In this document: piece by piece, positions 25,911 to 59,712 of the stretch
Layout of the letters: the number at the start of each line of letters is the position of its first letter
Numbering within the stretch: the first letter of the stretch is position 1
Source: an uncultured Bacilli bacterium
GTDB lineage: Bacteria > Bacillota_I > Bacilli_A > RF39 > UBA660
Assembly (NCBI GenBank): GCA_934096535.1
Contig: CAKOMC010000001.1
Span: forward strand, 1,255-65,254
Reading direction: 5' to 3'
DNA: 64,000 nt
Notes under the pieces: generated by a model
The model's database searches: none
What the model was told of the DNA's origin: nothing
Seen by the model: the letters and a program-made list of their open reading frames with translations, nothing else
Translations under genes and position numbers: made by a program

Positions 25911-27113
25911 TTAGTTATCATTAAGTATCATTGTTATTCTAGCAAAACCATTACCATGATTACCCGTCATTTCAGTATTATCTATATGTGATGGCATTTT
26001 CAAATAATCATCTTTTTCGGTTGTCCAGTTATACCCATTACCATCAATCATTACGGTATTTGTAAAATAAAGTCCCGAATAATGAATACTCCCGCCAGTA
26101 TGAATTATATTATCTTCAGTACTTTCTTTTTTTATTGCATCGCAACCATTATGCCCAGAAATGAAAGATGAACCTCCGGCTCCCGAAGAAACATTTGCAA
26201 ATGTACTTAATCCGGAACCACCGCCGTAATATCCGCCACCACCAGTTCCATAGCTATCACAAGCATCAACAGCATAACCGAATTTGCTATTACAAGTAAG
26301 ATTAGAACCAACTCCATAACTAGTTTGACTACCACCAGTTGCAACTTTATGAATATGGCTATAATCTCCACTTCTAATATTACCACTATAACCAATTAAA
26401 CCACCAGCAGCACCACCAATTAAAGAAGAATTCAAATATTTTCCAGTTCCTGCGCCACCTGCCGCGACCATAATTCTTGATTTTAAGGAATTAAAATCAT
26501 TCCAATTACCATTAACTATTCTAATATCGGTGGCACCACCGCCACCCGTATATTTTCCATCGGTTCCAGAGCCTCCAGCGGCTCCACCATTATAACCACC
26601 TTTAATGGAAAAAGTGGAACCACCAACATAAATATATAATTTTTGATTTTTTTCTAAATTGATTGTTCCCGAAGTATAACCACCTAATCCACCTTGATAA
26701 GTTGTATCACTAATAGTTACATCACCACCACTTGCTCCCCAAGCTTCAATTTTATATGTCCCCTTAATTGGAGCCGTAAAGGCTTGAACATTACCAGTAT
26801 AATCAAAATTAAATACGGTATCGCCATTATAAAAATATAAATTACATTTAACCTTTTTAGTTAAATTTTTTAATAACAACCCCCAAGACTCATTATCCCA
26901 CACTGCCTCAATATTTTCATCATCACATACAGCCTCATCAAATATAGCTTCCCCTTTTTTAGGAAAATCATCTTGCCTAACATTATTCATAAAAACGCCA
27001 AGTTCAGAACTATTTAATAACTTATTATCTTTATCATTAAATTGAATATTTCTAAAAATTAAAAGAATACCAACTAATAAAAGCACCCAGAAAAATCTTT
27101 TCATTATTATCAA
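25911..27113 (-). CDS. secreted glycine-rich protein, member of the 'C..W.L..KKxKCNLYF' N-terminal-module family
   Basis: Signal anchor, then AVCDDENIEAVWDNESWGLLLKNLTKKVKCNLYF (the shared module). About 250 aa of Gly-rich repeats follow (GGAAGGSGTDGKYTGGGGATD..., AAGGAGTGKY...). Confidence 0.75.
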   Translation of the reverse strand: MIIMKRFFWVLLLVGILLIFRNIQFNDKDNKLLNSSELGVFMNNVRQDDFPKKGEAIFDEAVCDDENIEAVWDNESWGLLLKNLTKKVKCNLYFYNGDTVFNFDYTGNVQAFTAPIKGTYKIEAWGASGGDVTISDTTYQGGLGGYTSGTINLEKNQKLYIYVGGSTFSIKGGYNGGAAGGSGTDGKYTGGGGATDIRIVNGNWNDFNSLKSRIMVAAGGAGTGKYLNSSLIGGAAGGLIGYSGNIRSGDYSHIHKVATGGSQTSYGVGSNLTCNSKFGYAVDACDSYGTGGGGYYGGGSGLSTFANVSSGAGGSSFISGHNGCDAIKKESTEDNIIHTGGSIHYSGLYFTNTVMIDGNGYNWTTEKDDYLKMPSHIDNTEMTGNHGNGFARITMILNDN

Positions 27114-27166
27114 CCTACTATCTTCTTTATTTTATCATCTATTGGACCCTCTGTCCATATATTTTT

Positions 27167-27430
27167 ATGGATAATTTGTCCATACTATTCTTAGGATGTG
27201 ATAAAATGTTACATGATGATACTTACTATTTTGATATAATAAGAGCTAATATTAAAAAAGAGCGGGAAAAGAAAGGCTTAACTCAACAACAACTTGCTGA
27301 CAAAGCCGGTATTACTATGAATTATTTAGCCAAAATTGAAAGTCAAAAGATGGGTCGGGGCTTTACTATTGTAATTCTTGGCCGCATTGCTGATGCTTTA
27401 GAAATCGACATAAAAAATCTTTTTAATTGA
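27167..27430 (+). CDS. XRE-family HTH transcriptional regulator
   Basis: LTQQQLADKAGITMNYLAKIE is a helix-turn-helix. It is divergent from the Gly-rich family gene. The true start may be the Met at ~27209. Confidence 0.7.
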   Translation: MDNLSILFLGCDKMLHDDTYYFDIIRANIKKEREKKGLTQQQLADKAGITMNYLAKIESQKMGRGFTIVILGRIADALEIDIKNLFN

Positions 27431-27449
27431 CTTAAAATTAAAAAAAGAA

Positions 27450-27977
27450 TTAATCTCTTTTCAAGGTTAATTCTTTATTTTTAGGCTTACTTTCTTGAAC
27501 TACAATTTTATCATACAAAGCATTGGGAAAACTAATTAATGTTTTTAAACCCGATAGTTCATAATTTTTATCTTCTGTATAATGTTTAGGAATAACTACA
27601 TAATCATGATAATCAAAAAGTTCATTTAAACGATAAGCTAAAAAAATCCCATCTTTCTCATAAAGTGCTAAGTACATTGAATAACGGTTTGCCTTGGTAT
27701 AATTATAATCTAGACAATCATCATCATCTTTAAGAGGCATAGTTCTTTGAAATTGTCTACCAACATATTCGGAACTTTTTAAAAATTCTTCTAAGCTAAT
27801 AAAGTATTTATTTACTTCATCTAAACTAGCAAACTCTTTTCTATAATCTTCACAAGTTAAAATATAGCCATTTTCCATTTCTTGTAAATGCCAAAAGCCA
27901 TTCAACCCACCAATGTTAAGAGAATACTTTTCTTCCTTTCCGTCTTTATCTCTTTTAATATAAATATTACTCTGCAT
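27450..27977 (-). CDS. hypothetical protein (175 aa)
   Basis: ORF only. Confidence 0.4.
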   Translation of the reverse strand: MQSNIYIKRDKDGKEEKYSLNIGGLNGFWHLQEMENGYILTCEDYRKEFASLDEVNKYFISLEEFLKSSEYVGRQFQRTMPLKDDDDCLDYNYTKANRYSMYLALYEKDGIFLAYRLNELFDYHDYVVIPKHYTEDKNYELSGLKTLISFPNALYDKIVVQESKPKNKELTLKRD

Positions 27978-28153
27978 AAATAATCCCCCACTTTAACTAG
28001 TACTCATTATAACTTCAGAACACCAATATACTATATTTTAAGTTTTCTCGCAAGTAACAATCTTTAAATTTAAGCCTTTTTTTGGTTTTTTCTAAAAAGA
28101 TTTTTCATATTATTCTTATCCTCCCAAGAAAAAAAGAACCTTAAGTTCATTTT

Positions 28154-28510
28154 TTATAGTTGGACACCATATTTATTATCTTCAGTAACGCTTGGACTAC
28201 ACATAGCAACTAAAACTAAAATCCAACCAATTACAGGAATAATATCCATTAGAAGATACCAACCGGATTTATTAACATCATGCATTCTTCTAACAGCTTG
28301 GGCTAGACATGGAATTAATAATATTAAAGCATAAATTGCTGCAAAAATATCATAAATTTTTAATTTAGTAACCTTAGCAACAAAGCCAACTATTAAAGAT
28401 AATACAAAGCTTACTACTATATTCATTAAAATAGCTACCCAAAAATCTTTTCTCGTTGTTCTATCTTTAAAATTGAAATAGTTAATAAACATTTTTTTAA
28501 AAGACTCCAT
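28154..28510 (-). CDS. DUF805-family inner membrane protein (YhaH-like)
   Basis: RKDFW...RRMHDVNKSGWYLLM...IPVIGWILVL is the DUF805 signature. Confidence 0.75.
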   Translation of the reverse strand: MESFKKMFINYFNFKDRTTRKDFWVAILMNIVVSFVLSLIVGFVAKVTKLKIYDIFAAIYALILLIPCLAQAVRRMHDVNKSGWYLLMDIIPVIGWILVLVAMCSPSVTEDNKYGVQL

Positions 28511-28589
28511 ATAAACTCTATCCTTTCCTATTTTAATATAGCACTATTTTATAATTTTAATCAAGCATTAAATAAAAATTGATGCCCTT

Positions 28590-29078: not shown

Positions 29079-29277
29079 ATTTCATCACCTAAATATTATT
29101 TTAATAATTATCTCAGTTTTTGCAACTACTCAAATTTTAATTTTAGTGTTATTTTCCTTGCTAAATCTTAAATTTGGTCTATTAATATTTCATGTTTTGA
29201 AAAAAGGTTTTAAAAAAAAATAACTGTTAAGAAGTTTGAAAACAAATCTATAACAGTTACTTTTATTAAAATATAAA

Positions 29278-30171: not shown

Positions 30172-30172
30172 A

Positions 30173-37391: not shown

Positions 37392-37937
37392 CTATCTTAT
37401 ATAGTAAAGGTCTAAAAAAGCTTCAATTGTCTTGGCATCAGTACTACCACTAAAAGTATGGGTAACATTTCCATTTTCAATGATATAAGTGATAGGGGTT
37501 CCTGTAACTACTATGTATTTACCTAAACTTTCATTTTGCCCTAGATTACTCATATTAACTTCATAAGCACTTATACCTAAATTACCTAAAGCGCTCTTTA
37601 ATTCTGGCAAAAACTCTTCACAATAACTGCAACCAGTTCTGGTTACTACTAAAACACTTCTTCTACTTGTTTGAAATAATTTCGTAAAATCTTGAAATTT
37701 TAGTTCGGTTAGAACCCCATCGGTCTTTGGTAAAGTGTCTAAAGTTACTTTACTATCAATATCTTTGATAGGTACTTGATCAATTTGCTTAGCGTGCGAA
37801 GTAGCCTCCTCAAATTTAGTGGTTACTTTATTGGTATCTTTATTACTAATTAAATAGTAAACTGTAAAAACAATTAACCCCACTGCTAAAAGTGTTAATA
37901 CGACCACACTAATTATTTTTAATTTATTATTTTTCAC
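37392..37937 (-). CDS. membrane-anchored thioredoxin-like thiol-disulfide oxidoreductase
   Basis: An N-terminal transmembrane helix and a CxxC motif (RTGCSYCEEF). Confidence 0.6.
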   Translation of the reverse strand: MKNNKLKIISVVVLTLLAVGLIVFTVYYLISNKDTNKVTTKFEEATSHAKQIDQVPIKDIDSKVTLDTLPKTDGVLTELKFQDFTKLFQTSRRSVLVVTRTGCSYCEEFLPELKSALGNLGISAYEVNMSNLGQNESLGKYIVVTGTPITYIIENGNVTHTFSGSTDAKTIEAFLDLYYIR

Positions 37938-45657: not shown

Positions 45658-46362
45658 TTAATTAATCTTTACAGTATCATTATAAGTGATATCCCCACTA
45701 TTTACAAGCAAATTCATAATGGTATTACCATATTTATCAATGTATAGTTCATAAGTTTTTATAGTTGTATTTTCTTTATCTTTTAAATAATTTTCTTTTG
45801 CTTCTTCGATACTATTATTTGTTATTTTACCAGCACTTTTTATTTCGTCCAGACTCATTATATGACCATCTTTTTTACTAAAGGTATAATATTTTAAAGT
45901 GTTATTATCTTCATCACTTGTTATATTTATATGTCCTTTAATAGTTCCAACCGTTATATAATTATCACTTTCTAATATATCATATTTCAAATAGTCAGCT
46001 TCATAAATCTTATTATCATCATCTAATTCATAAACAATATCTTTTTTATCAATAACAACTTCATCTATGGTTTTAATACTTTTTTCAGCCTTAATCATTT
46101 CTTCATTTAATAAGTTTTCTAATTCCTTAGCGTCCTTACTATCAAAATTAAGATGAATAGTATTATAAACTAAGTCTAAATCTTCGGATACAGTCTTGAT
46201 ATCAGTAAAATAAACATAATCTTTCGAGTTATCCATTCTTATATCTACAATTTTAGTAGTTGGCTTTTGACCTTTATTTCTAATTAAATAGTTACCACCT
46301 AATAAAAGTACAAAAATAATTAAGACAAACATGGTAACACTAAGATAATTCTTTTCTTGCAT
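45658..46362 (-). CDS. membrane-anchored hypothetical protein (234 aa)
   Basis: An N-terminal transmembrane helix followed by a soluble domain. Confidence 0.4.
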   Translation of the reverse strand: MQEKNYLSVTMFVLIIFVLLLGGNYLIRNKGQKPTTKIVDIRMDNSKDYVYFTDIKTVSEDLDLVYNTIHLNFDSKDAKELENLLNEEMIKAEKSIKTIDEVVIDKKDIVYELDDDNKIYEADYLKYDILESDNYITVGTIKGHINITSDEDNNTLKYYTFSKKDGHIMSLDEIKSAGKITNNSIEEAKENYLKDKENTTIKTYELYIDKYGNTIMNLLVNSGDITYNDTVKIN

Positions 46363-46940
46363 TAGTTATAATCCGCCTCACTTAAATAAGTATTTATTTT
46401 GTTGTGAAAACTCGTAATTGCATCTTCATTCCAATAAGTATCGGGTCTCATATCAAAAGATACTAAAGATGTTTCGTCATCATAATTAATAATTTTACCA
46501 TCTTTAACAAATATTAAAGCCGGTGTAAATAGGTATTCTGCTCCCATATCCGTAATTTTTAAATATTTACTAAGTAAATCTTCTATTTGTCTAAAATTTT
46601 TCGTCTTTTTAGTTCTATCTTCTATAACATCATAATAATAAACTTTCGTAATATTATTTTCTTTTAAAACGGGGTATAGTTCCCGAACATATTCTTGCAT
46701 CCACGCATTACTAGAAAACCCTACTAGGATAATTCCCGTCTCATTATTTAAAATATTTAAAACTCGATTAGAATTAACATAAACAAAGGGATTATCCGTA
46801 TCAATAGTTGTATATTCTTTACTAAATCGTTCCGCATCAGTTATGGTACTACTAAAATCTTTTTTTCCTAAGTAGACAAAGCACCATATCAAAAAAGCAA
46901 ATAAAACTAAATATATAAAATTTCTTGTTATTTTTTTCAT
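46362..46940 (-). CDS. membrane-anchored hypothetical protein (192 aa)
   Basis: An N-terminal transmembrane helix followed by a soluble domain. It is translationally coupled to the upstream gene. Confidence 0.4.
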   Translation of the reverse strand: MKKITRNFIYLVLFAFLIWCFVYLGKKDFSSTITDAERFSKEYTTIDTDNPFVYVNSNRVLNILNNETGIILVGFSSNAWMQEYVRELYPVLKENNITKVYYYDVIEDRTKKTKNFRQIEDLLSKYLKITDMGAEYLFTPALIFVKDGKIINYDDETSLVSFDMRPDTYWNEDAITSFHNKINTYLSEADYN

Positions 46941-48631: not shown

Positions 48632-49054
48632 TTAAGCAATACTTTCTATCCAAAAATAATCCTGATTTTGAAAATCACAAGCAAAAAGATTACTATTTGT
48701 CTTTAGTTTACTAAAAAACTCTGGTTTAGCAGCTGTTGTTTCCATAACTAAATAAGCATTGCCAATTTTTAGTTTAGTTTCTTCATCATTATAGTAGTTA
48801 TTGTAAATATGCGTATTCATAAATTTTGTATAATGGTCATTATTACGATAACTCGTAAACAAATAATTATTTAGTTCTAATTTGTTAATCGGGCTAACCA
48901 TCTTCTCATACATATTTATCCCATATTCTTGTTCATTACTATTTAACATGTAAATATTTTGAAATGACTTAAATAAGTTATAGGGACAAACTCTTGTCAT
49001 TTTCTTAAACTCATTATTAATATTAAAAATATAAAACTTTCTCAAATTTATCAC
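48632..49054 (-). CDS. hypothetical protein (140 aa)
   Basis: ORF only. It is divergent from variable-family gene 1. Confidence 0.35.
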   Translation of the reverse strand: MINLRKFYIFNINNEFKKMTRVCPYNLFKSFQNIYMLNSNEQEYGINMYEKMVSPINKLELNNYLFTSYRNNDHYTKFMNTHIYNNYYNDEETKLKIGNAYLVMETTAAKPEFFSKLKTNSNLFACDFQNQDYFWIESIA

Positions 49055-49141: not shown

Positions 49142-49166
49142 TTCATAGAGTATAAAACTCTATGAA
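49142..49166. repeat. recombination-site-like element (9-bp palindromic arms + 7-bp core TATAAAA)
   Basis: Seen directly in the sequence. Confidence 0.7.
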
Positions 49167-49394
49167 AGCTAATTTTCGGTATCTCTATTTAACTTATAAC
49201 TTAAATATACCATAGTTTTTCTTCTTTTTAAAGGAGATTTTTTATAGTTTTATAGTCAAATTTCTAGTCAAGAGCTTTTATGTCAAAGCCAGTATTTACC
49301 TTGTTTTCAATCCATTTTTTTAGTCAAATAAAAATAAAATTTCTGGTCAAAATTATCGTCAAGCGCCTAATTTTACTAGGTTTTTCCTACTATT

Positions 49395-49419
49395 TTCATA
49401 GAGTTTTATACTCTATGAA
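49395..49419. repeat. recombination-site-like element (core TTTTATA, reverse complement of the 49142 site core)
   Basis: Seen directly in the sequence. Confidence 0.7.
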
Positions 49420-49451: not shown

Positions 49452-50612
49452 ATGAAAAAGAAATATCTTATAACGAGGTTTATAATAATTTTAGGAACAC
49501 TTGTTCTCTCAAGAATAAATATAAGTAACAATAAAGACTTAGCAGTTTATATTGAAAACGAACTAAATTCATCAATTCCTGCTAGTAACGAGAATCTTTA
49601 TGTAAATAAAATAGATTGTGATAACAATGTAAATGCTTATTGGGATAATGATAAATGGGGTTTATTTATTAGTAACTTTTCTAAAAAAACTAAGTGTAAC
49701 TTATACTTTATCCATGATACTGAAAAGCCTTATTGGCAAATGGAAAGTGTTGAAAAAGTAAATGTTTTATCAACTGATATCTTGGAATTTAAAATTGCTG
49801 GCACCGATTCTTTAGGCAATGTCTCTTCTAATCTTGATATTAGTAATTTATCCTTCTATGTTAATGACGAATTAGAAAGTCCAATTAAAGTTGAACTTAC
49901 TAAGTTAGAAGAATTAAATAAAAAGATAACCTACTCTATAAAAGTCCACATGGTTGGAGGAGCCGGCAATCTAAAAGTTAAAATCAGTAGTGGTACTTTA
50001 ACTGATACTAGTAATAATCAAAATGCTGAAATAACTTTAGATACTGGAATTAATGTAAGTAAAAATCCGGCTAAAATTTTTAATTTTTATACCGATAAAT
50101 TTCCAGAAAATTCTGTCTGGCCGAAATACTATCGAAATCTATTAAATAATTATTACAATGATGTTACGCATAGTAATAATCCTACTCTAGATGAAATAGC
50201 TTCTGGAGATTATGATTTAATATTTTTTAATAATGATTGTTGGACTGTACCACCCGTAGCAAATTATATTTTTAGTTTGGGCATTAATGTATTTAGCGTT
50301 GGAAATGACAGCACTTCTGCTCTTGACATAATTAGCACATTTACCGAAAATAATAAAGTTGGTAACCATAAAAAAGTAATAAATAATGGCTTGACACACT
50401 ACTTACCTGATTTATTCGCTGGTAGCGAAGATAATTTAAATTTAATCAAATTTTCAGAAGAGGCTACTGTTCTTTACAAAAACGAAACTAACAACACAGA
50501 ATATGACAGTATTGGTTATATGATTAAAAACAATAAAATATGGTTGCATTCTCAATATATATCGAGTAATTATGTTATTCCTATGATACAATTTGCGCTT
50601 GGACAACTATAA
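49452..50612 (+). CDS. variable-family secreted/membrane-anchored protein 1 (conserved N-terminal module + divergent C-terminal domain)
   Basis: RBS AAGGAG lies 8 nt before the ATG at 49452 (the ORF-track start at 49446 is a TTG). MKKKYLITRFIIILGTLVLS is a signal anchor. The module is ...NKIDCDNNVNAYWDNDKWGLFISNFSKKTKCNLYF. Confidence 0.8.
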   Translation: MKKKYLITRFIIILGTLVLSRINISNNKDLAVYIENELNSSIPASNENLYVNKIDCDNNVNAYWDNDKWGLFISNFSKKTKCNLYFIHDTEKPYWQMESVEKVNVLSTDILEFKIAGTDSLGNVSSNLDISNLSFYVNDELESPIKVELTKLEELNKKITYSIKVHMVGGAGNLKVKISSGTLTDTSNNQNAEITLDTGINVSKNPAKIFNFYTDKFPENSVWPKYYRNLLNNYYNDVTHSNNPTLDEIASGDYDLIFFNNDCWTVPPVANYIFSLGINVFSVGNDSTSALDIISTFTENNKVGNHKKVINNGLTHYLPDLFAGSEDNLNLIKFSEEATVLYKNETNNTEYDSIGYMIKNNKIWLHSQYISSNYVIPMIQFALGQL

Positions 50613-50638: not shown

Positions 50639-50663
50639 TTCATAGAACATATTACTCTATGAA
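50639..50663. repeat. recombination-site-like element (core CATATTA; one arm mismatch)
   Basis: Seen directly in the sequence. Confidence 0.65.
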
Positions 50664-50903
50664 AGCAGAAAATCGACATTTATTTTTAATTTATATGTTA
50701 ACTATATCACAGTTTTAAGGCTTTTAAAAGAGTCTTTTTTTATCTATTATAGTCATTTTTGTAGTCAAATAATTTTGGTATAAAGTCTGTAAATCCAAGA
50801 CTCTGTAGAAAAATTTGTAGTCAAATATTCACATTCTTTTGTGGTCAAAATTCATGGTCAAAATTTTTCAATCCTCAATAAATACGGGCTTTGCAAGCCA
50901 TTT

Positions 50904-50928
50904 TTCATAGAGTAATATGCTCTATGAA
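50904..50928. repeat. recombination-site-like element (core TAATATG)
   Basis: Seen directly in the sequence. Confidence 0.7.
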
Positions 50929-50960: not shown

Positions 50961-52121
50961 ATGAAAAAGAAATATTTTATAACGGGGTTTATAATAATTT
51001 TAGGAATACTTGTTCTCTCAAGAATAAATTTAAATAACAATAAAGACTTAGCGGTTTATATTGAAAACGAACTAAATTCATCAATTCCCGCTAGTAATGA
51101 GAATCTTTATGTAAATAAAATAGATTGTGATAACAATGTAAATGCTTATTGGGATAATGATAACTAGGGTTTATTTATTAGTAACTTTTCTAAAAAAACT
51201 AAGTGTAACTTGTACTTTATCCATGATACTGAAAAGCCTTATTGGCAAATTGAAGAGGTTGAAAAAACAAGTGTTTTATCTACGGATATCTTTACTATAA
51301 AAATTTCTGGTAATGATTCATTAAGTAAAGTTACATCAAGTCTTGATACAAGTAGTTTATCATTTTATGTTAACGACACTTTGCAATCACCAATTAAAGT
51401 TGAACTTACTAAACTAGAAGAATCAAACAAAAAAATCATCTACTCTCTCAAAGTCCATATGATTGGTGGCGAAGGAAATCTAAAGTTAAAAATTAATAGT
51501 AACACTTTAACAGATAATGAAACCAATCAAAATGATGAAATTACATTAGACACAGGCATTACTGTAAGTAAAAATTCGGCTAAAATCTTGCATTATTATA
51601 GTACAAACGAAACTGAGGCTAGTATTCACTCCAACAAAGAAACACTAGATAAATACTATAATAATGTTACACATACAAACAACTATACACAAGAAAAAAT
51701 CATTTCCGAAAAATTTGATTTAGTATTTTTAAACTCTTCCGTTTGGGGAGTCCCTTCTACAGCAAACAATATTTTTAGTGCCAATATAAATTTGCTTAGC
51801 CTTGGCAATGATACAAATGACTATTTGGATATAATTAAAACCAGTGCTTCCAGCAAGTCGTCGGTAAATTCTTCGATGAAAGTATTGAATAACAAACTAA
51901 CATATTATATGCCTGATTATATTGCAGGCAGCACCGACAGTCAAAGACTAATTAAATTTAATAGCGATGTTAATATTTTATATAAAAATACTACAAATGA
52001 TGTCGAATATGATTCTATTGGTTACATTGAGCAAAATGGAAGAACTTGGCTACATTCTCAAATTGCTGAAAGCCAATATTACATTATTCCAATGGTGCAA
52101 TTTACGCTTGGTCAACTATAA
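50961..52121 (+). pseudogene. variable-family gene 2, interrupted by a single in-frame TAG (TGG to TAG in the conserved W of the ...WDNDN-W-GLFISNF motif)
   Basis: ORFs 50955-51167 and 51210-52121 are in the same frame. The stop codon at 51165-51167 replaces the Trp codon that genes 1 and 3 carry at the equivalent position (gataaatgggg vs gataactaggg). The downstream reading continues GLFISNFSKKTKCNLYFIHDTEKPYWQ... Confidence 0.7.
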
Positions 52122-52144: not shown

Positions 52145-52169
52145 TTCATAGAGCTTATAACTCTATGAA
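52145..52169. repeat. recombination-site-like element (core CTTATAA)
   Basis: Seen directly in the sequence. Confidence 0.7.
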
Positions 52170-52409
52170 AGCAGAAAATCGACATTTATTTTTAATTTAT
52201 ATGTTAACTATATCACAGTTTGAAGGCTTTTAAAAGAGTCTTTTTTTATCTATTATAGTCATTTTTGTAGTCAAATAATTTTAACTTAAAGTCTATAAAC
52301 TCAAGGCTTTGTAGGAAAATTTGTAGTCAAATATTCACATTCTTTTGTGGTCAAAATTTATGGTCAAATTTTTATAAGCTAAGGTAAGCACCGACTTCGA
52401 AGGCCATTT

Positions 52410-52434
52410 TTCATAGAGTTATAAGCTCTATGAA
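52410..52434. repeat. recombination-site-like element (core TTATAAG)
   Basis: Seen directly in the sequence. Confidence 0.7.
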
Positions 52435-52465: not shown

Positions 52466-53629
52466 ATGAAAAAGAAATATTTTATAACGGGATTTATAAT
52501 AATTTTAGGAATACTTGTTCTATCAAAGGTAAGCATAAATAGCAATAAAGACTTAGCAGTTTATATTGAAAACGAACTAAATTCATCAATTCCTGCTAGT
52601 AACGAGAATCTTTATGTAAATAAAATAGATTGTGATAACAATGTAAATGCTTATTGGGATAATGATAATTGGGGGTTATTCATTAGTAACTTTTCTAAAA
52701 AAACTAAGTGTAACTTGTACTTTATCCATGATACTGAAAAGCCTTATTGGCAAATTGAAGAAGTTGAAAGAACTAGTGTTTTATCTACGGATATCTTTAC
52801 TATAAAAATTTCTGGTAATGATTCTTTAAGTAAAGTTACCTCAAGTCTTGATACAAGTAGTTTATCATTTTATGTTAATGATACCTTGCAATCACCAATT
52901 AAAGTTGAACTTACTAAATCAGAAGAATTAAATCAAAAAATCACCTACTCTCTCAAAGTCCATATGGTTGGTGGCGAAGGCAATCTAAAGTTAAAAATTA
53001 ATAGTAACACTTTAACAGATAATGAAACCAATCAAAATGATGAAATCACATTAAACACAGGCATTACGGTAAATAAAAATCCTGCAAAAATCATGCACTT
53101 CTATGACTCCAGTTTTACTAGTGCATCCTATCAACTTAACTTTTATAAAAATCTCCTAGATAATTATTATAAAAATGTAACTCATAACAGTAATCCCTCA
53201 TTAGATGAACTAGCTTTAGGAAATTATGACTTGATTTTCTTTAATAATGGTTGCTGGACAGTTCCAACCGTAGCAAATTATATTTTTAGTTTGGGCATTA
53301 ATGTATTTAGCGTTGGAAATGACAGCACATCTGCCTTGGATATAATTAGCACATCTATCACAGATAGTAAAGTTGGTAACCATAAAAAAGTAATAAATAA
53401 TGGCTTGACATACTATTTATCTGATTTAATTGCAGGTGGCGAAGATAATTTAAATTTAATTAAATTCGTTGATGAAGCAACCGTACTTTATAAAAATAAT
53501 ACAAACAACATTGAATACGACTCACTCGGTTATATAAAGAAGAACGATAAAACTTGGCTCCACTCGCAATACATTTCCAACAAATATATTATTCCCATTA
53601 TCCAATTTACTCTTGGCGAACTTAAGTGA
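52466..53629 (+). CDS. variable-family secreted/membrane-anchored protein 3 (close paralog of gene 1)
   Basis: RBS AAGGAG lies before the ATG at 52466. The N-terminal module is near-identical to gene 1. The C-terminal half (…FFNNGCWTVPTVANYIFSLGINVFSVGNDSTSALDIIS…) is a paralog of gene 1. Confidence 0.8.
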   Translation: MKKKYFITGFIIILGILVLSKVSINSNKDLAVYIENELNSSIPASNENLYVNKIDCDNNVNAYWDNDNWGLFISNFSKKTKCNLYFIHDTEKPYWQIEEVERTSVLSTDIFTIKISGNDSLSKVTSSLDTSSLSFYVNDTLQSPIKVELTKSEELNQKITYSLKVHMVGGEGNLKLKINSNTLTDNETNQNDEITLNTGITVNKNPAKIMHFYDSSFTSASYQLNFYKNLLDNYYKNVTHNSNPSLDELALGNYDLIFFNNGCWTVPTVANYIFSLGINVFSVGNDSTSALDIISTSITDSKVGNHKKVINNGLTYYLSDLIAGGEDNLNLIKFVDEATVLYKNNTNNIEYDSLGYIKKNDKTWLHSQYISNKYIIPIIQFTLGELK

Positions 53630-53929: not shown

Positions 53930-55357
53930 CTAATTTTTAATCTTAATAATCTTATGTCTATTATCCCATAACTTAAGCAACTTATTTATAACAACACTAC
54001 CTAATATAAAAACTGTAACATTAATAAAATAAGTATATCGAGGCTGAATTTCTATTAACATATACACTAAAGTATTCGTAATAAATAAAATATAAAAATA
54101 AAATAAATTACTATTTAAAATATCTTTTTTCTTTAAATACACTCCTACTACTAAACCTAGTATCATAAAACCATAAATAACTTTATTAACCCCTGATATT
54201 AAATCTTCTAAAGTTTTATAAGCTACTTCTAGTCCTAGTACTTTAATCTTCTTATCATTATAAATACCACTACTTGATTCTAAAGAACCATTTAAAACAA
54301 AATTATTAGTCTTACATAAAAGAAGTTTACCTACTTTATATGGATTATTAATTCTTTCTTTAATAACTTCTAACTCTCTAGTTTCGTCCCCTAAATAGAT
54401 TTCATCATTGGTATCATATCTACCACAAGTATCGGGATTAGTACCTAAAACAAATTTCCATAAGGGATTATTATTTTTAAGACCATCTTCATTAATATTA
54501 CTCTTAACTAAATATGTAGAAACTCCTATATTTACTAAAGAATAGAAACAAACAAAAATACTACATCTTACTACTGTAATTAACCATTTTTTACTTTTAA
54601 GAATATCTTTTTTAGTTAATTTTAAAACTCTATATAAAAGATAACTAAAAATGATAACAATACCTTCGGGTCTTAAAACATTAGAAAGTCCTAAAATGAT
54701 ACCAGCAATAATATAATTTGATAATTTATCTTCTTTATTATTTTTTAAAAGAAAATAAATACTTAAATAACTAAGCAAAGCACTTAAATGATGATTAGAA
54801 ATAACTGTTGCTGAATATATGGAAAAGGGAAATACAGCATATAAAGCGGCTGTTATTCTAGCGGGAGTTTCTCCTACTAACGCTTTAACGGTCTTATAAA
54901 TAAAATAAGTTAAACCAATTTCATAGAAAATATTTAAAAGTTTTAAAAATAGCTCGCTATTAACTATTTTTAACATTAAGGCCTCATATAAAACAAAACC
55001 GGTCTGATAAGGCCACATTGCAAAGTAACCACTCTTACTAAAACTGTAGTCTCCTAATTTAAACTTTCTTGCAGCCTCTAACAAAACCGCAAAATCACTA
55101 GTCTGGGGGACATTAAATACAATAATACCCACAATTCTAACTAAAGTTGCTATTAAAAGTAAATAAAAAACAAAGTGTTTTCCTTTATACTTTCTAATAA
55201 TAAAAATAATGCTAACTATTAGAAATAGTCCTAAAAGTAAATTATTACTAATAAGAAAGACTAAACTTAAAAATACGGGAATAACAAGACTAACATTCAT
55301 AAAAAACTTATCTAATTTAAAATTATTTTTAAATATATTTAATTTATTTTTTAACAT
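53930..55357 (-). CDS. polytopic membrane protein, putative GT-C glycosyltransferase (ArnT/PMT, GT39-like)
   Basis: About 11 transmembrane helices over 475 aa, with an N-terminal region resembling the GT39/PMT_2 fold (…YFAMWPYQTGFVLYEALMLKI…ITAALYAVFPFSIYSATVISNHH…). Confidence 0.45.
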   Translation of the reverse strand: MLKNKLNIFKNNFKLDKFFMNVSLVIPVFLSLVFLISNNLLLGLFLIVSIIFIIRKYKGKHFVFYLLLIATLVRIVGIIVFNVPQTSDFAVLLEAARKFKLGDYSFSKSGYFAMWPYQTGFVLYEALMLKIVNSELFLKLLNIFYEIGLTYFIYKTVKALVGETPARITAALYAVFPFSIYSATVISNHHLSALLSYLSIYFLLKNNKEDKLSNYIIAGIILGLSNVLRPEGIVIIFSYLLYRVLKLTKKDILKSKKWLITVVRCSIFVCFYSLVNIGVSTYLVKSNINEDGLKNNNPLWKFVLGTNPDTCGRYDTNDEIYLGDETRELEVIKERINNPYKVGKLLLCKTNNFVLNGSLESSSGIYNDKKIKVLGLEVAYKTLEDLISGVNKVIYGFMILGLVVGVYLKKKDILNSNLFYFYILFITNTLVYMLIEIQPRYTYFINVTVFILGSVVINKLLKLWDNRHKIIKIKN

Positions 55358-55456: not shown

Positions 55457-55532
55457 TGCCTAGTAGCCAAGTGGTAAGGCATCAGATTCTGACTCTGACA
55501 TTTCGTGGGTTCGAGTCCTACCTAGGCAGCCA
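55457..55532 (+). tRNA. tRNA-Gln (CTG)
   Basis: TGCCTAGTAGCCAAGTGGTAAGGCATCAGATTCTGACTCTGACATTTCGTGGGTTCGAGTCCTACCTAGGCAGCCA. It has a 3-bp D-stem with the GCCAAG(Y)GGTAAGGC D-arm typical of tRNA-Gln, anticodon loop TTCTGAC (CUG), discriminator G and an encoded CCA. Confidence 0.85.
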
Positions 55533-55543
55533 TTATGTTTATT

Positions 55544-55567
55544 AAGACCTTGAGGGGTCTTTTTATT
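55544..55567 (+). terminator. rho-independent terminator after tRNA-Gln
   Basis: An AAGACC-ttgagg-GGTCTT hairpin followed by TTTATT. Confidence 0.55.
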
Positions 55568-55728
55568 GTAATTTTTTTGCTTTATTTTAAAATTTAATTT
55601 ATTTATAATTAAGTACTATATTATAAAGTGTTAGTAAAATTAATATAAAAAATGAATTTAGAAATATTTAAAAACTCTTTGAAAATAAAAGAAACTATAT
55701 TATAATAGACAAAGAAAAGAGGAATATT

Positions 55729-57366
55729 ATGACAAATAAAGAATTAGCAGACATTTTACTTCCTAATGTCTTACATGATTATAAATATTATGAAGAAAAA
55801 TATCCAGAAAGAAATCTAAGTGCCGGAGCTTATGTAACTCGTTTTGCTCCATCTCCTACTGGTTTCGTTCACATGGGAAGTTTATATACTTCTTTTGCGG
55901 CTTTACAGCTGGCTAAACAAACTAAAGGGATATGTTTCTTAAGAATTGAAGATACTGATGGTAAAAGAACCGTTTTAAATGGGGTTCAAGGTATTATTGA
56001 TGATTTTAAAAACTTGGGGATTACTTTTGATGAAGGCCAAGGTTTTGGTGGTGAATATGGTCCTTACTTACAATCAGAGAGAAAAGATATTTATCAAGCC
56101 TATGCTAAAAAATTAATTGCAGAAGGTCTAGCTTACCCATGTTTTTGTACCCCAGAGCATTTAGAAGAAATAAGAAGTTATCAAGAACATAAAAAGTTGC
56201 GTTTAGGTTATTATAAAAAATATGCTAAATGTCGTGACTTAACGATGGCAGAAATTAAAGAACATTTAGATAAGGGCGATAAATATATTATTCGTTTCCG
56301 TAGTCAAGGCGATTTTGAAAATAAAATTATTTTGCATGATGCCATCAAAGGCGATATTGAAATGCCGGAAAATGATATTGATGATGTTATTATTAAAAGT
56401 GATGGTCTACCTACTTATCATTTTGCCCATGTTGTTGATGATCATTTAATGCATACAACCCATGTTACTCGTGGGGATGAATGGGTAGCTAGTTATCCTA
56501 AACATCATGAATTATTTAAACTTTTAGGTTTTAAAGAACCTGTTTACGCTCATATTGCCCCAATTACTATTAAAGAAGGAACAACAGTTCGTAAATTAAG
56601 TAAAAGAAAAGATAAAGAAGCTGCTATTAGTTACTATCAAAAGTTAGGTATTCCAACGGAAGTTATTAGATTATACTTAGCTACTATTGAAAATTATGAC
56701 TTTGAAGAATGGTATAATGCTAATCCAGATAAAGGTATTGATGACTTTACTTTTGAATTTAGTAAAATGCCTATCGGTGGTACTCTATTTGATATGGAAA
56801 AACTACAAAGTATTGCTAAAATTTACTTTAGTCGTTTAAAAAACTATGAATTATATGATATGGCTTTAAAATATACTAAAGAATATGATGAAGAATTTTA
56901 TAATATTTTAGTAAATAATAAAGAATACGCTCTTAATGTCTTTAATATTGAAAGAGATATTGAAAGACCTCGTAAAGATATTGCTGCCCTAAGTGATGTA
57001 AAAACCGAATTTAGTTATATGTTTAATGATTTATTTTATAAAGATACTAATCCTTATGCAGAATGTAGGGTATGTGATAAAAATATTGTTCTAGATTATA
57101 TTAATAATGTTTATAATGAAGCTGATACTCAAGAAGAATGGTTTAATAATTTAAAAGAATTTGCGGTAGAAAATAACTACTCAGCAGATAAAAAGGCTTA
57201 TAAGGCTGAGCCCGATAAATTTAATGGTATGGTAGCCGATTTCTGTGCCTTACTTCGTATCATTATTTGTAAGAAAAATCAATCCCCAAATATTTATTAT
57301 TTAATTAAATATCTAGGTAAGATTGAATTAGTTAAGAGAATTAATAAGTTCTATGAAGAAAAATAG
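55729..57366 (+). CDS. gltX: glutamyl-tRNA synthetase-like class I aaRS
   Basis: RFAPSPTGFVHMGSLYTSF is a HIGH-region variant (HMGS), LRIEDTDGKR is GluRS-specific and VRKLSKRKD is the KMSKS variant KLSKR. Size is 545 aa. tRNA-Gln lies about 200 bp upstream. Confidence 0.85.
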   Translation: MTNKELADILLPNVLHDYKYYEEKYPERNLSAGAYVTRFAPSPTGFVHMGSLYTSFAALQLAKQTKGICFLRIEDTDGKRTVLNGVQGIIDDFKNLGITFDEGQGFGGEYGPYLQSERKDIYQAYAKKLIAEGLAYPCFCTPEHLEEIRSYQEHKKLRLGYYKKYAKCRDLTMAEIKEHLDKGDKYIIRFRSQGDFENKIILHDAIKGDIEMPENDIDDVIIKSDGLPTYHFAHVVDDHLMHTTHVTRGDEWVASYPKHHELFKLLGFKEPVYAHIAPITIKEGTTVRKLSKRKDKEAAISYYQKLGIPTEVIRLYLATIENYDFEEWYNANPDKGIDDFTFEFSKMPIGGTLFDMEKLQSIAKIYFSRLKNYELYDMALKYTKEYDEEFYNILVNNKEYALNVFNIERDIERPRKDIAALSDVKTEFSYMFNDLFYKDTNPYAECRVCDKNIVLDYINNVYNEADTQEEWFNNLKEFAVENNYSADKKAYKAEPDKFNGMVADFCALLRIIICKKNQSPNIYYLIKYLGKIELVKRINKFYEEK

Positions 57367-57393
57367 TCCCATCAAAGACTATCTTTTTTATAC

Positions 57394-58887
57394 CTAATTT
57401 TTAGTAATAACATTTCTAAACGAAACATCATCATAATCTTTTCCACTACCATTTGTTGATAAAAAAATACCAGCCCTACTTCCGGATAAATAGCTACCAC
57501 CTCTTGCCATTGCAGGTCCATTTTCCCATAAAGCGTAAGATGTATCATTATACCAAGTTGAAGAAGTTGAACTTCTAACCTCTTTAGTAGCATCGCCAAG
57601 AGAATACATCTCAAACGAAGTATGATTTAAAAATATATATTTATCAAAATACTTATCTAAAGGAATATTGTCATCATTAAAGCCAGTATCGCTATACAAA
57701 TTTTTATTTTGATTGCCATCAATCAACAAAACCATAACAGCTTCATAAGAACAACCACTTAAATCATATATTCCAAATACATTCCCAGTAGTAGAAGCAT
57801 TAACGCCATTTTCATTCCACCTAAAATTAGTTGGGCATAAATCATTTTCTGAAGCTTCGGAATCAACGCTTGTTCCAGAACACCCAGTAACATAACTTGC
57901 ATTATTATTAATCCAAACCTCACATCCACTTTCAATACAGTTATTTTTATCAATATATCGTCCATATTTAGAATTAGTAAGATAAGCAACCGCTCCCCAG
58001 TCCATATTTTTCATCATATGACTATCAATTTCAGTAGTGTTTAAACCATATAATAAATTGTTAATTAATTCTATATTTCTTGATATCATAAATTTACTAT
58101 ATAAATTTATATTTTTAATACTAACTAAATTAGGCTTTATCGTTGCCAAATCAGTCGTTCCTGTCATTTCAAACTTTCCTACCCAAATACCCGACAATTC
58201 TGTATCGCCAAAAGTAAAAGCTGGGTGAGTTAAATACTCGCCATTTTTGTTTCCATTTGCTTTTGGTCTTTCTGTACTTTCAAATATAATATTAATCATT
58301 TGTTCATCACTAACACCATTTTCGGCATTCCATAATCTATAACGATATCGTGGTATCCAAACATACATTTGTAAAATGTCATTCATATCTATAATTTGTC
58401 CGACCATATCTGGTTTTAAATTCATATTACTATCAAAATATTTATTTTTTACTGTGGTATCGCTACAATTAACCAAAACAGCATTCCCCCACTTATGATT
58501 TTCATAATCATACCAAAGAGAATTTTCATCAGCAATCAAAATATTTCCAGTATCATCATAAACAACAGGAATAAACCCTTGATAAAGTTCAGGCTTCGTA
58601 ACATCTTTTATTGTCTGAAAATACAAATTACACTTAGACTTTTTAGATAAATTACTAACAAATAGCCCCCACTCTTCATCATTCCAGGAAATATTAACAT
58701 CATTATCACAAACAGCCTTCGTAAAAACAGACTCATTCTTACTAGGAATTTTATCAGTTAATTCACCATCAAGATAATTAGCAATATATTCCTCTTTTAA
58801 TAAAGACTTACCAAATAATACATTTGCTGTATATAAAATCATTAATCCTATTATCACTATTAAAATCATCTTTTTTTTCATAATCAT
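57394..58887 (-). CDS. variable-family protein 4: conserved N-terminal module + C-terminal FGE-sulfatase (SUMF1/DUF323)-like domain
   Basis: The module is AVCDNDVNISWNDEEWGLFVSNLSKKSKCNLYF. The C-terminus carries …AMARGGSYLSGSRAGIFLS…VSFRNV, which matches the RGGSW…GFR signature of FGE-sulfatase domains. The likely start is ATG at 58881 or 58887, downstream of an AGGAG RBS. Confidence 0.75.
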   Translation of the reverse strand: MIMKKKMILIVIIGLMILYTANVLFGKSLLKEEYIANYLDGELTDKIPSKNESVFTKAVCDNDVNISWNDEEWGLFVSNLSKKSKCNLYFQTIKDVTKPELYQGFIPVVYDDTGNILIADENSLWYDYENHKWGNAVLVNCSDTTVKNKYFDSNMNLKPDMVGQIIDMNDILQMYVWIPRYRYRLWNAENGVSDEQMINIIFESTERPKANGNKNGEYLTHPAFTFGDTELSGIWVGKFEMTGTTDLATIKPNLVSIKNINLYSKFMISRNIELINNLLYGLNTTEIDSHMMKNMDWGAVAYLTNSKYGRYIDKNNCIESGCEVWINNNASYVTGCSGTSVDSEASENDLCPTNFRWNENGVNASTTGNVFGIYDLSGCSYEAVMVLLIDGNQNKNLYSDTGFNDDNIPLDKYFDKYIFLNHTSFEMYSLGDATKEVRSSTSSTWYNDTSYALWENGPAMARGGSYLSGSRAGIFLSTNGSGKDYDDVSFRNVITKN

Positions 58888-58911
58888 TCTCCTAAATAAC
58901 CATATTTCGGC

Positions 58912-58936
58912 TTCATAGAGTATACAACTCTATGAA
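58912..58936. repeat. recombination-site-like element (core TATACAA)
   Basis: Seen directly in the sequence. Confidence 0.7.
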
Positions 58937-59176
58937 AAACTGACCGTGAGACCCGTATTCACCTAGAAGTAGTAATTAATTGACCAGAAATTTTGACGAG
59001 AAAAAATTAGATTTATTGACTACAAAAGGTTCTTAGACTCAAGGTAACTAAAGACTTAGAAAGAAAATTAATTGACTATAAATTTGACTATAATAAAATT
59101 CAAAATCATCTTTAAAACATTTAAAAACTATGATATATTTAACATATAAGTTAAAAATAAACGCCGATTTTCCGCT

Positions 59177-59201
59177 TTCATAGAGTTGTATACTCTACGA
59201 A
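59177..59201. repeat. recombination-site-like element (core TTGTATA; one arm mismatch)
   Basis: Seen directly in the sequence. Confidence 0.65.
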
Positions 59202-59322
59202 AAAGTAAGTTTTATAGTCAAAAAAAAGGCCTTGTATCATCTAATCGATTTTAGGTCTTTTAATTATTATAATAAAAATACAATTCTAAATAATCTTTTT
59301 ATCCTTTTAAATAAATCTAAAA

Positions 59323-59712
59323 TTATTTGGTAAAATAAACACTACACTTAGTTTTAGCAACATCATTAGTTATAGTAAGACTCCAACTACTAGTATCAAA
59401 AGTAGCGGTTGCCCCATTCGTACAACTAACACTTTTTAAAACTAGACTAGTATCTTTACTAGGAAATCCCCCACTCACATAAGTATCATTAATAAAAGCA
59501 ATTTTCTTTATTGGTTCGTAAGTAAACTTGGCAACTGTCGTTCTTATAACCTCTTCTTCAGCGTGCGCTGTAAACTTTGAAAAAGCAAAATAAACCACCG
59601 TTGATAAACATAAACATAATGATACAGTGCCAATTCCATACTTCAAATATAAAACTCTATTTTTTTTACGCTCTATTTTTTTTAAAACTTTATTATAATC
59701 TTTACTCATCAT
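59323..59712 (-). CDS. short family member consisting of the N-terminal module only (129 aa)
   Basis: A signal anchor, then …SVSCTNGATATFDTSSWSLTITNDVAKTKCSVYFTK, which follows the same C…W.L…K.KC.(L/V)YF pattern. It ends 3 residues after the motif. It lies about 120 bp outside the distal site of switch 4, in the same orientation as gene 4. Confidence 0.5.
   Translation of the reverse strand: MMSKDYNKVLKKIERKKNRVLYLKYGIGTVSLCLCLSTVVYFAFSKFTAHAEEEVIRTTVAKFTYEPIKKIAFINDTYVSGGFPSKDTSLVLKSVSCTNGATATFDTSSWSLTITNDVAKTKCSVYFTK

Follow-up and report, generated by a model that had tools for sequence, protein, structure and literature searches.

Six genes in the window (the whole 64-kb stretch of DNA analyzed here), which comes from an uncultured low-GC human-gut bacterium (Bacilli), share an N-terminal module and differ in their C-termini. 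What is this module, what does it carry, and how are the genes controlled? Here, we describe a protein domain family without annotation, the architectures built with it, and a cassette of ∼290 bp (278–290 bp) that lies upstream of four of the six genes, two genes being without such an inverton, and that probably switches the expression of exported proteins by inverting a promoter. The explanation as a whole (domain family, architectures and promoter switches) is given a probability of about 0.7. Coordinates of all features are shown in Table 1.

Table 1 Module genes, putative invertible cassettes and adjacent LCP gene in the window
Feature	Position	Strand	Details	Basis
Module + ALK/LTK-type glycine-rich domain protein	25911..27113	-	400 aa; module about 26832-27002	ORF, Pfam, motif scan
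Inverton 1	49142..49419		Arms 49142-49166, 49395-49419; interior 228 nt; arm TTCATAGAG-TATAAAA-CTCTATGAA, other arm core ...TTTTATA...; promoter TTTAAA-N17-(TG)TATATT, minus strand 49232->49204, directed away from paralog 1	
Paralog 1	49452..50612	+	386 aa; signal/anchor, module (about 49542-49709), Ig-like sandwich, ThuA/GATase1-like domain	
Inverton 2	50639..50928		Arms 50639-50663, 50904-50928; core CATATTA / TAATATG; one arm mismatch; orientation that of inverton 1	
Paralog 2	50961..52121	+	Pseudogene in this strain	In-frame TAG
Inverton 3	52145..52434		Arms 52145-52169, 52410-52434; core CTTATAA / TTATAAG	
Paralog 3	52466..53629	+	387 aa; architecture as paralog 1; module about 52556-52723	ORF, motif scan
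Module + ∼400-aa uncharacterised C-domain	57394..58887	-	497 aa; module about 58618-58791	ORF
Inverton 4	58912..59201		Arms 58912-58936, 59177-59201; core TATACAA / TTGTATA; upstream of minus-strand 497-aa gene, promoter directed away from it	
Stand-alone member	59323..59712	-	129 aa; module about 59332-59505	ORF, synteny
LytR-CpsA-Psr (LCP) family gene	59815..61215	-		Pfam PF03816, E 3.3e-41

A two-cysteine domain family without annotation

The module consists of an N-terminal hydrophobic segment followed by a two-Cys beta-domain of ∼55–60 aa. An earlier note on this DNA had proposed that six ORFs share it, and all six could be located; a six-frame search of the 64-kb window with the pattern C..W..W.L..K.C.[LV]YF returned exactly these six matches and none other. 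Both elements named at that time, the hydrophobic N-terminus and the two-Cys motif, were present in every copy, with the cysteines 26–27 residues apart. The five multi-domain proteins have 11–16 uncharged residues in this hydrophobic stretch, whereas the 129-aa protein has 21.

A profile search of 1.84 billion representatives with the module identified 803 clusters at E<=1e-3, of which 146 remained at E<=1e-10, a similarity far beyond chance. The module lay within the first ∼155 residues in about 143 of the best 150 of the 803 matching clusters; in the metagenome clusters it was nearly always the first domain past the hydrophobic segment, and some proteins carried tandem arrays of 2–5 copies. 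Both cysteines were invariant across 89 full-length members and probably form a disulfide. An AF2 model of the module alone (pLDDT 89.8) contained six strands. Searches of Pfam, NCBIfam, PHROGs, PADLOC and PDB sequences with the module gave no match, and no known fold was matched in a fold search, in agreement with the earlier note, which could assign it to no family. A search in relatives, also suggested there, was run as a genome scan with an alignment of the stand-alone orthologs. Because the family proved abundant in related genomes and metagenomes and matched no known domain, the proposal of a new family stands: the module is a real protein family that lacks annotation. The relatives carry the labels 'Mycoplasma sp. 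CAG:956' and 'uncultured Tenericutes'. A phage origin was considered and rejected, as the stand-alone protein had no relatives in IMG/VR and only the glycine-rich domain (GRD) part of the 400-aa protein has phage homologs.

The module had been viewed as one constant unit for export and anchoring. A signal/anchor and a domain do recur, but they are two separable parts: besides the signal/anchor segment there is an extracellular domain in its own right, found alone or in tandem. The proteins of the six genes are exported, each of them either membrane-anchored or secreted, and would be exposed at the surface, where the domain may form a membrane-proximal base carrying interchangeable C-terminal domains. 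Given how short the hydrophobic segments are in the multi-domain members, some of these proteins may be cleaved and released rather than anchored.

Six genes and their C-terminal domains

The glycine-rich C-terminus described before for the 400-aa protein matched Pfam PF12810 (ALK_LTK_GRD; E 7.8e-45, residues 117–396) with 154.2 bits against a gathering cut-off of 24.5, covering nearly the whole model (positions 7–243 of 243). In contrast to ALK/LTK, the 400-aa protein is bacterial and exported, and its N-terminus is different; its PHROG matches were confined to residues 99–396, the phage homologs sharing the glycine-rich part only. Comparison with protein P0040 suggests that the gene likely starts at an ATG three codons inside the TTG originally listed. 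No inverted-repeat pair could be found upstream of it. An XRE-type HTH gene lies divergently at 27167–27430.

The domain that had been called unknown in the three paralogs is indeed common to all three, but its fold could be assigned. It comprises an Ig-like domain followed by a ThuA/GATase1-like fold, the latter assigned by structural superposition with class I glutamine-amidotransferase-like domains (PDB 1t0b and 3rht; 7–11% sequence identity) and without a match in Pfam. Unlike the two PDB entries, the paralog domain is predicted to be extracytoplasmic and is fused to the Ig-like domain. Paralog 2, previously taken for an intact ORF, contains an in-frame TAG (51165–51167) in place of the conserved module Trp codon; its ortholog in a second sample (L130) has no stop and is an intact gene.

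For the C-domain of the 497-aa protein, the previous label of FGE-sulfatase-like appeared weak. Pfam gave nothing at E<=1, and a profile of the domain found only sub-threshold matches in the PDB, SUMF2 (1y4j, E 0.66) and PvdO (5hha, E 0.8), whose alignments fall on an N.YG.YDmsG..WE motif and weakly suggest an FGE-like domain. It has >6900 homologs, and none of the 120 listed had a precomputed Pfam match on the domain.

The 129-aa protein ends with the module, as had been noticed, and comprises a cytoplasmic Lys-rich tail, a 21-residue TM, an 'FSKF...EEEVIRTTVAKF' linker and the module. In all eight related genomes compared (L001–L008), its gene, which lacks an inverton, directly follows the LCP gene on the downstream side, and the two are probably co-transcribed. 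It is thus a conserved core gene encoding the module alone.

Among the 89 full-length members, the module was combined with GRD (PF12810; 27 of 89 proteins), Flg_new, Gp10_C, DUF6273 and many unannotated C-termini, and the 400-aa C-domain of the 497-aa protein was also found behind quite different N-terminal heads. The domain shuffling claimed earlier is therefore real, and it runs in both directions. The accompanying view of a variable surface-protein repertoire, in which surface exposure itself is presumed, was supported as well, and it is strengthened by the invertible promoter cassettes that precede four of the six genes.

Possible roles of the N-terminal unit

Alternatively, the N-terminal unit might act as an assembly signal for a fibre or pilus to which these proteins contribute as subunits or tip adhesins, the 129-aa protein serving as base or adaptor subunit. 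Such a structure could be associated with Tad/Flp, or it could resemble TasA, with SipW-type cleavage followed by donor-strand exchange. On three contigs, the gene of a distant member (P0218) sits between tadA and tadB in a Flp/TadE/TadZ/TadA/TadB/TadC locus; however, the Tad context is confined to one distant branch, and the contexts of P0174 and P0126 are unrelated. Many members, including the stand-alone gene, have a '[FY]A[YF]SKF ... E.EVvRTTVG.F' segment after the TM, the beginning of which resembles, by eye only, SipW-type 'AYFSD...' signals, but the YSKF segment is absent from the four inverton-controlled genes of the window. Models of pilin, pseudopilin, TadE and SipW signals gave no match even at E<=10, nor did the NCBIfam SipW-cognate signal models find anything at E<=10 in ten long-N members. 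The G/FTLxE and Flp G/xxxxEY motifs are absent, and the prepilin cleavage motif (G|F/M-T-L-x-E) occurs in none of the six N-termini. Proteins with TasA/camelysin-type heads (PF12389) do share both invertons and C-domains with the present family, whereas hhalign detected no relationship of the module to the 'SYAYW' head domain, and a SipW-like peptidase motif (SGSMEP) was not found in ∼1 Mb of related loci plus the window. The idea of a SipW/TasA-type signal was rejected on the lack of a model match, of a sipW motif and of an hhalign relation to the 'SYAYW' head, and we consider a fibre or pilus unlikely.

The module could also be cleaved off as a pro-domain or secretion leader (intramolecular chaperone or export tag), leaving freely secreted enzymes or toxins as mature products, but this appears rather improbable. 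The short hydrophobic segments resemble signal-peptide h-regions, the C-domain folds are enzyme-like (ThuA/GATase1-like and possibly FGE-like), and the pLDDT of the module was lower in full-length prediction (63–71) than when it was modelled alone. However, there is a conserved gene whose product has a full-length TM followed by the module only, tandem modules are what one expects of structural extracellular domains rather than of pro-peptides, and no conserved processing site follows the ...C.LYF end of the module. A membrane-proximal base remains our preferred reading of the domain.

Probable promoter cassettes upstream of four genes

Each cassette is bounded by lox-like inverted sites, TTCATAGAG-N7-CTCTATGAA, which form its 25-nt arms; within a site, 9-bp palindromic arms flank a 7-nt asymmetric core. 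This pattern occurs eight times in the window (0.1 expected), paired into cassettes upstream of the four genes, and the gene-proximal arm ends 24–33 nt before the start codon in all four cassettes. The same cassette was identified upstream of orthologs and further members in related loci (L003, L006 and L135), among them an orthologous cassette with the core of inverton 4 (in L003), and the same switch family also precedes unrelated exported-protein families. The interior carries 4–6 TAGTCAA/GGTCAA repeats, which may be accessory (arm-type) sites, and a conserved, outward-facing promoter (motif match) with the consensus TTTAAA-N17-TGnTATAAT (extended -10). Of 81 unique cassettes, 80 have its TGnTAnnnT part at a distance of 36–38 nt from one arm, compared with 12 of 81 at the other end; a weak promoter is also listed on the other strand. 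In all eight cassettes of the 'opposite' orientation, the promoter is on the coding strand just before the gene.

The cassette, a multi-copy element whose 25-nt inverted repeats enclose a conserved interior (about 290 bp in all), could also be a MITE or duplicated intergenic DNA with hairpin terminators, the module genes then being ordinary constitutive paralogs; each arm is itself a hairpin, one arm was flagged as terminator-like, and in metagenomes many contigs break off at or close to an arm, as they do at repeats. However, the core pairs are exactly reverse-complementary in 82 of 87 metagenome cassettes, in which 24 distinct cores occur, so that cores match within one cassette and vary between cassettes. 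Such exact covariation counts against a MITE, because transposition would not maintain it and recombination within the core requires it. Considering also the fixed position just upstream of exported-protein genes, the promoter at a constant distance from one end, and the inversions and tyrosine recombinase gene described below (the latter in place of a transposase), a MITE is very unlikely. An RNA element was rejected as well, since no Rfam family matches the cassette, and the evidence for inversion makes such an explanation unnecessary.

Inversion was observed in homologous cassettes of related contigs, not in the four of the window, whose orientation was unchanged in the second sample (L130). 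Between L046 and L066, the flanks are 97% and 92% identical, whereas the interior is 97% identical only as reverse complement, and an arm SNP in the inner half-site moves with the flipped segment. The same flip between identical flanks was found in L118 versus L102 and in L022 versus L060. The inversion thus occurs in place and breaks within the core. In four loci (L051, L065, L088 and L122), a gene 144–178 nt away from a cassette encodes a protein of 355 aa that contains Phage_integrase and SAM-like domains; no recombinase gene was found within the 64-kb window. On the basis of the flipped loci, the conserved promoter and the adjoining tyrosine recombinase gene, the four cassettes are probably promoter-inversion switches of phase-variable exported proteins, each of which probably turns its own protein on or off independently. 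Since all four promoters face away from their genes, the switches of the window appear to be OFF in this assembly.

In Cre/loxP and FLP/FRT, including engineered heterospecific lox spacers, a short asymmetric spacer lies between two inverted recombinase-binding half-sites, and its orientation determines the result; two sites in inverted orientation give inversion, and partner sites need matching spacers. This requirement fits both the exact covariation of the cores and the half-site SNP carried along by the flipped segment. Unlike loxP and FRT, the present sites have half-sites of 9 bp instead of 13 bp, a core of 7 nt, no sequence similarity and the above repeats in the cassette interior. As cores differ between cassettes and match within each, the switches may be private. 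It should be noted that core sharing within one contig was at the level of chance (1 of 18 pairs, 0.93 expected), with no sign that neighbouring cassettes avoid a common core.

The following picture could account for these data. A signal/anchor segment would be followed by the six-stranded two-Cys beta-domain as membrane-proximal base, on which a glycine-rich domain, an Ig-like and ThuA-like pair or a perhaps FGE-like 400-aa domain is mounted. Four of the six genes would be controlled one by one, each by its own cassette: a tyrosine recombinase, presumably encoded elsewhere in the genome, would exchange strands within the core and thereby flip the promoter toward or away from the gene, and the matching core within a cassette may keep each switch private. 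Immune or phage evasion, or adhesion switching, might be the role of the system. A bolder and quite improbable extension is that the signal/anchor and the two-Cys domain together form a dedicated N-terminal unit that sorts and assembles the proteins into a new surface fibre of Gram-positive bacteria, Tad/TasA-like in logic; the LCP-adjacent stand-alone protein would be its envelope base, the phase-variable members would exchange onto or polymerise from this base as alternative tips, and one tyrosine recombinase would pick the tips by way of dozens of lox-like private-core switches.

Comparison with known systems

The closest analogue appears to be the mpl family of Mycoplasma penetrans, in which each gene of the P35/Mpl lipoproteins has an invertible promoter of its own (Horino et al. 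2003, summarised in PMC2268961). The two systems have in common a multigene family of surface proteins over several loci, a small invertible promoter beside most genes with independent ON/OFF control, tyrosine recombinases encoded near some family members, and a host-associated, low-GC lineage, related in our case to Mollicutes. They differ in several respects. Unlike the Mpl lipoproteins, the proteins found here lack a lipobox and have a signal/anchor and a two-Cys beta-domain; the cassette is ∼290 bp long with 25-nt lox-like sites; the present organism has TGG as its Trp codon and possesses LCP genes; and its switch family also drives unrelated exported-protein families.

Global invertases of the Mpi/Tsr type in Bacteroides, which act on promoters of capsular polysaccharides and surface proteins, and the RecV switches of Clostridioides difficile (cwpV and flgB) are also similar in that short inverted repeats surround a promoter segment of 150–300 bp and many dispersed switches per recombinase act on surface targets in a gut setting (PMC2268961, PMC7446863, PMC9286219). 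In contrast with these, the cassettes described here have another arm sequence, cores that vary by switch and a host in an uncultured Bacilli lineage. Mpi is a serine recombinase, whereas our candidate is a tyrosine recombinase with a SAM-like N-domain. Literature searches returned only irrelevant papers for the arm sequence and nothing for invertons in RF39.

Implications

The module adds a new extracellular domain family (803 clusters, all unannotated), together with the proteins carrying it, and provides a first entry point to the function of 'dark' proteins in a lineage that is common in the human gut but uncultured. The 24 cores on a constant arm are candidate orthogonal recombination sites for one recombinase and possibly a tool, and the arm motif is a simple probe with which phase-variable genes and their ON/OFF states could be identified in metagenomes of this lineage. 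The lineage appears to use promoter inversion at multiple loci, as Mycoplasma penetrans and Bacteroides do, and would therefore be under strong pressure at its surface from host immunity (for example, IgA) or phages.

The module as a domain family

All six ORFs in which the earlier note had recognized a shared N-terminal module carry it as described, and a six-frame regular-expression scan of the 64 kb for the two-cysteine motif returned exactly six sites, corresponding to these ORFs. When aligned, the six have in common a hydrophobic segment at the N-terminus, a strand '(L)A(V)Y(I)xxE', an 'IPxK' motif with an invariant Pro and the block C-x(7-9)-W-x(4)-W-x-L-x(3)-N-x(3)-K-x-K-C-x-(L/V)-Y-F, with 26-27 residues between the two cysteines in every copy. 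The alignment matched 80 metagenomic proteins in a word-indexed search, none of which had a Pfam domain on the module. When 1.84 billion cluster representatives were searched exhaustively with HMMER, a trimmed profile of 63 positions, from which the hydrophobic segment was left out, matched 803 clusters at E<=1e-3, with 146 of them reaching E<=1e-10; in about 143 of the 150 best clusters the match lay within the first ~155 residues, right behind the hydrophobic segment. The two cysteines were the sole invariant columns among 89 full-length members, and the AlphaFold2 model was a confident six-stranded beta-domain (pLDDT 89.8). Searches of Pfam, NCBIfam, PHROGs, PADLOC and PDB sequences returned no match to the module, which the earlier note could assign to no family; it is not a known pilin or pseudopilin N-terminus, and none of its members was named in the sources searched. 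The module is a real, unannotated domain family that also occurs in relatives, as seen from the 803 clusters and from eight genomes bearing orthologs of the stand-alone gene. Its Cys-Cys bond could be the work of an extracytoplasmic thiol-disulfide oxidoreductase.

Features of the window in order of position
Position (strand)	Feature	Details
21217-22683 (-)	Large polytopic membrane protein	By eye
22686-23663 (-)	GT2-like gene	By eye
25265-25705 (-)	GtrA-like gene	By eye
25911-27113	GRD gene	Module + ALK/LTK-type glycine-rich domain (GRD)
27167-27430 (+)	XRE-family HTH regulator	Adjoins GRD gene, divergent
37392-37937 (-)	Membrane-anchored thioredoxin-fold protein	CxxC (GCSYC); Pfam Thioredoxin E 1.4e-5
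46362-46940 (-)	TM protein, thioredoxin-like by eye	No CxxC, no Pfam match
48632-49054 (-)	SirA-like gene	Pfam SirA E 2e-7
49452-50612	Paralog	Module
50961-52121	Paralog	Module; in-frame TAG at 51165-51167
52466-53629	Paralog	Module
53930-55357 (-)	PMT_2-type membrane glycosyltransferase	GT39/ArnT-like; between paralog array and gltX
55457-55532 (+)	tRNA-Gln (CTG)	Between PMT_2 gene and gltX
57394-58887	497-aa protein	Module + 400-aa C-domain
59323-59712	Stand-alone module gene	Lys-rich tail + 21-residue TM + conserved linker ('FSKF...EEEVIRTTVAKF') + module
61186-61215 (-)	5' end of LCP gene	ATG AAG AAA AAA AAG AAA AAG AAG (MKKKKKKK), A8 run included

Domain partners and genomic setting

The C-terminus of the GRD gene product, described as glycine-rich in the earlier note, is indeed PF12810 (E 7.8e-45), which is also the commonest partner of the module (27 of 89 family members); further partners are Flg_new, Flg_new_2, Gp10_C and DUF6273. 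The 400-aa C-domain of the 497-aa protein has more than 6900 homologs and no Pfam annotation. Its 'FGE-like' label is plausible but unproven, as its profile reached the FGE-fold structures SUMF2 and PvdO at E~0.7 only, on the motif 'N.YG.YDmsG..WE'. The N-terminal heads found on homologs of this C-domain are the module in short or long form, a TasA/camelysin-type head (PF12389) and a 'G.SYAYW' head with its own Cys pair, to which hhalign detects no relation of the module. Because both the partners of the module and the heads of the C-domain vary, heads and tails have been swapped in both directions, in line with the domain shuffling proposed before.

The three paralogs are a triplication, repeated in tandem every ~1507 bp. 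The middle one contains the module, as had been stated, but its reading frame is not intact: the TAG falls precisely at the conserved Trp codon. Its counterpart is intact in a contig from another metagenome sample (L130), and the TAG is therefore a strain-specific pseudogene mutation or a sequencing error. TGG is a Trp codon in this organism, whose AT-rich window (GC 26-35%) includes housekeeping genes (rpoB, pcrA, ruvAB, obg, frr and gltX among them) and comes from a Hadza gut metagenome (assembly ERZ4562321, contig NODE_400, 72.6 kb).

In the stand-alone gene the module is the last part of the protein, with no further C-terminal domain, as first described. Orthologs occur in eight species-level genomes, every one a human-gut MAG labelled 'uncultured Bacilli', 'Mycoplasma sp. 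CAG:956' or 'uncultured Tenericutes'. All eight have the same LCP (LytR-CpsA-Psr) gene 70-100 bp upstream of it, in the same orientation. The interval between the stand-alone gene and gltX varies in content and may be empty or hold an FGE-like member, a long-N member or a lipoprotein. The stand-alone gene seems to be the conserved core of the family, and the other members its accessory cargo. The A8 run in the LCP gene may serve as a slipped-strand site, at the 5' end of a putative operon with the stand-alone gene. The position of the PMT_2 gene is kept in relatives, and the second large polytopic membrane protein of the window has no Pfam match; together with the GT2-like and GtrA-like genes, these suggest that surface proteins or polymers may be glycosylated.

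A role of the module proteins in fibre or pilus assembly is suggested by a distant member, P0218 (492 aa), encoded between tadA (T2SSE) and tadB/tadC (T2SSF), and by 'AYSKF', which looks by eye like SipW-type signals, but it finds no support in model searches. The P0218 locus (contig L131, 1-9477, also L132 and L133) is a Flp pilus locus with Flp_Fap, TadE and a ParA-like gene. That the module is a cleaved pro-domain is unlikely, given its stand-alone form and the 2-5 tandem copies found in a few proteins (P0089, P0101, P0125, P0175 and P0188), which also argue that it folds independently and is more than part of a leader.

Invertible cassettes with a putative promoter

Repeat analysis of the paralog region revealed, ahead of every paralog, a pair of perfect 26-nt inverted repeats separated by 226-238 nt; the 497-aa gene has the same pair upstream on the opposite strand. 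The arm, TTCATAGAG-N7-CTCTATGAA, is found 8 times in the window, where 0.1 copies would be expected, and the four ~290-bp cassettes are 81% identical, share one orientation relative to their own genes and match no Rfam family. Each arm consists of two inverted 9-bp half-sites with an asymmetric 7-nt core between them, the layout of tyrosine-recombinase core sites such as loxP or FRT. The four cassettes have four cores (TATAAAA, CATATTA, CTTATAA and TATACAA), and the cores of the two arms of one cassette are exact reverse complements.

A metagenome scan for the arm found at least 120 stretches, mostly from gut samples. Among the matches listed, cores were exactly complementary in 82 of 87 paired cassettes, with 24 distinct cores. 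The remaining five cassettes (L035 1227-1503, L049 4973-5249, L111 2788-3076, L127 13-302 and L089 850-1138), several of which pair cores known from two different cassettes (such as TATCTAA and TTTGCAA), may have arisen when switches recombined with one another or may be chimeras of assembly. Contigs L003, L006 and L135, the last found independently via protein search, have the same cassette ahead of orthologs and other members. The cassette also precedes other exported-protein families (L009, L011, L012, L017, L048, L049, L065, L086, L088, L112 and others), none with a Pfam match; one comprises ~650-aa proteins with a TM followed by a 'G.SYAYW/F' and Cys-pair head ('CF...INL.NAYPIS...FTI.NTC'), and another ~420-570-aa proteins with an 'SY(A/S)YYLAN' motif.

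Natural inversion is seen between contigs L046 and L066, whose flanks are 97% and 92% identical over 200 nt and whose 238-nt interiors agree only when one is reverse-complemented (97% against 50%). One L046 arm has a G>A substitution in its inner half-site, and L066 has the complementary change in the inner half-site of its other arm, which places the exchange point inside the core. The pairs L118/L102 and L022/L060 show the same flip. As the 25-nt arms do not reach the length of an assembly k-mer, contig orientation reflects real molecules. Many metagenome contigs stop within ~130 nt of an arm (for example, L016, L044, L067, L076 and L078), which fits assembly breaks at mixed-orientation or repeated cassettes. 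Core covariation, inversion in place and a constant location ahead of genes contradict a MITE origin of the cassettes.

Across 81 unique cassettes the consensus is conserved in the arms, in four TAGTCAA/GGTCAA repeats (possible accessory sites of the recombinase) and in a ~60-nt end with TTTAAA-N17-TGnTATAAT on one strand. Among the matches listed, the extended -10 lies 36-38 nt from the arm at this end in 80 of 81 cassettes; close to the opposite arm the motif is seen in no more than 12 of 81. Of the listed cassettes next to a module gene, 33 have the orientation seen in the window, with the putative promoter facing away, and 8 the opposite one. All 8 place the promoter on the coding strand just ahead of the gene-proximal arm; hence the window's four switches read as OFF, presumably in the assembled majority. 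The SirA-like gene starts 88 nt past the distal arm of inverton 1, whose putative promoter points at it in the present (OFF) orientation, so that this inverton might toggle between two divergent genes. A divergent XRE-family HTH regulator (window 27167-27430; L134 1299-1754) adjoins two module genes without an inverton, the GRD gene and that of P0174 in L134. On four contigs, a 355-aa tyrosine recombinase (Phage_integrase E 3e-24 and a SAM-like domain) is encoded 144-178 nt from a cassette; its gene, at 3964-5049 on L065, is absent from the 64-kb window.

Relation to known systems and proposed mechanism

We found no description of this system in the literature. Its closest analogue, in the account of PMC2268961 (citing Horino 2003), is the mpl family of Mycoplasma penetrans, most genes of which are switched by their own adjacent invertible promoter; invertons of Bacteroides and C. 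difficile follow the same logic (PMC2268961, PMC7446863). New are the protein domain, without annotation in anything searched, the lox-like site family with its many natural core variants, and the uncultured gut lineage as its setting.

Gene-specific cassettes, core covariation and natural inversion favor the variable surface repertoire proposed in the earlier note, in which surface exposure is what we infer. The N-terminal segment would export the proteins, and the two-Cys domain would be a disulfide-stabilized, membrane-proximal base bearing variable C-domains. Strand exchange would need matching cores within a cassette, and core differences between cassettes might curb recombination between switches; the sharing of a core by cassettes of the same contig is no rarer than chance would predict. 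A trans-acting tyrosine recombinase would flip each promoter independently, and such flips would yield mixed populations displaying different subsets of the proteins.
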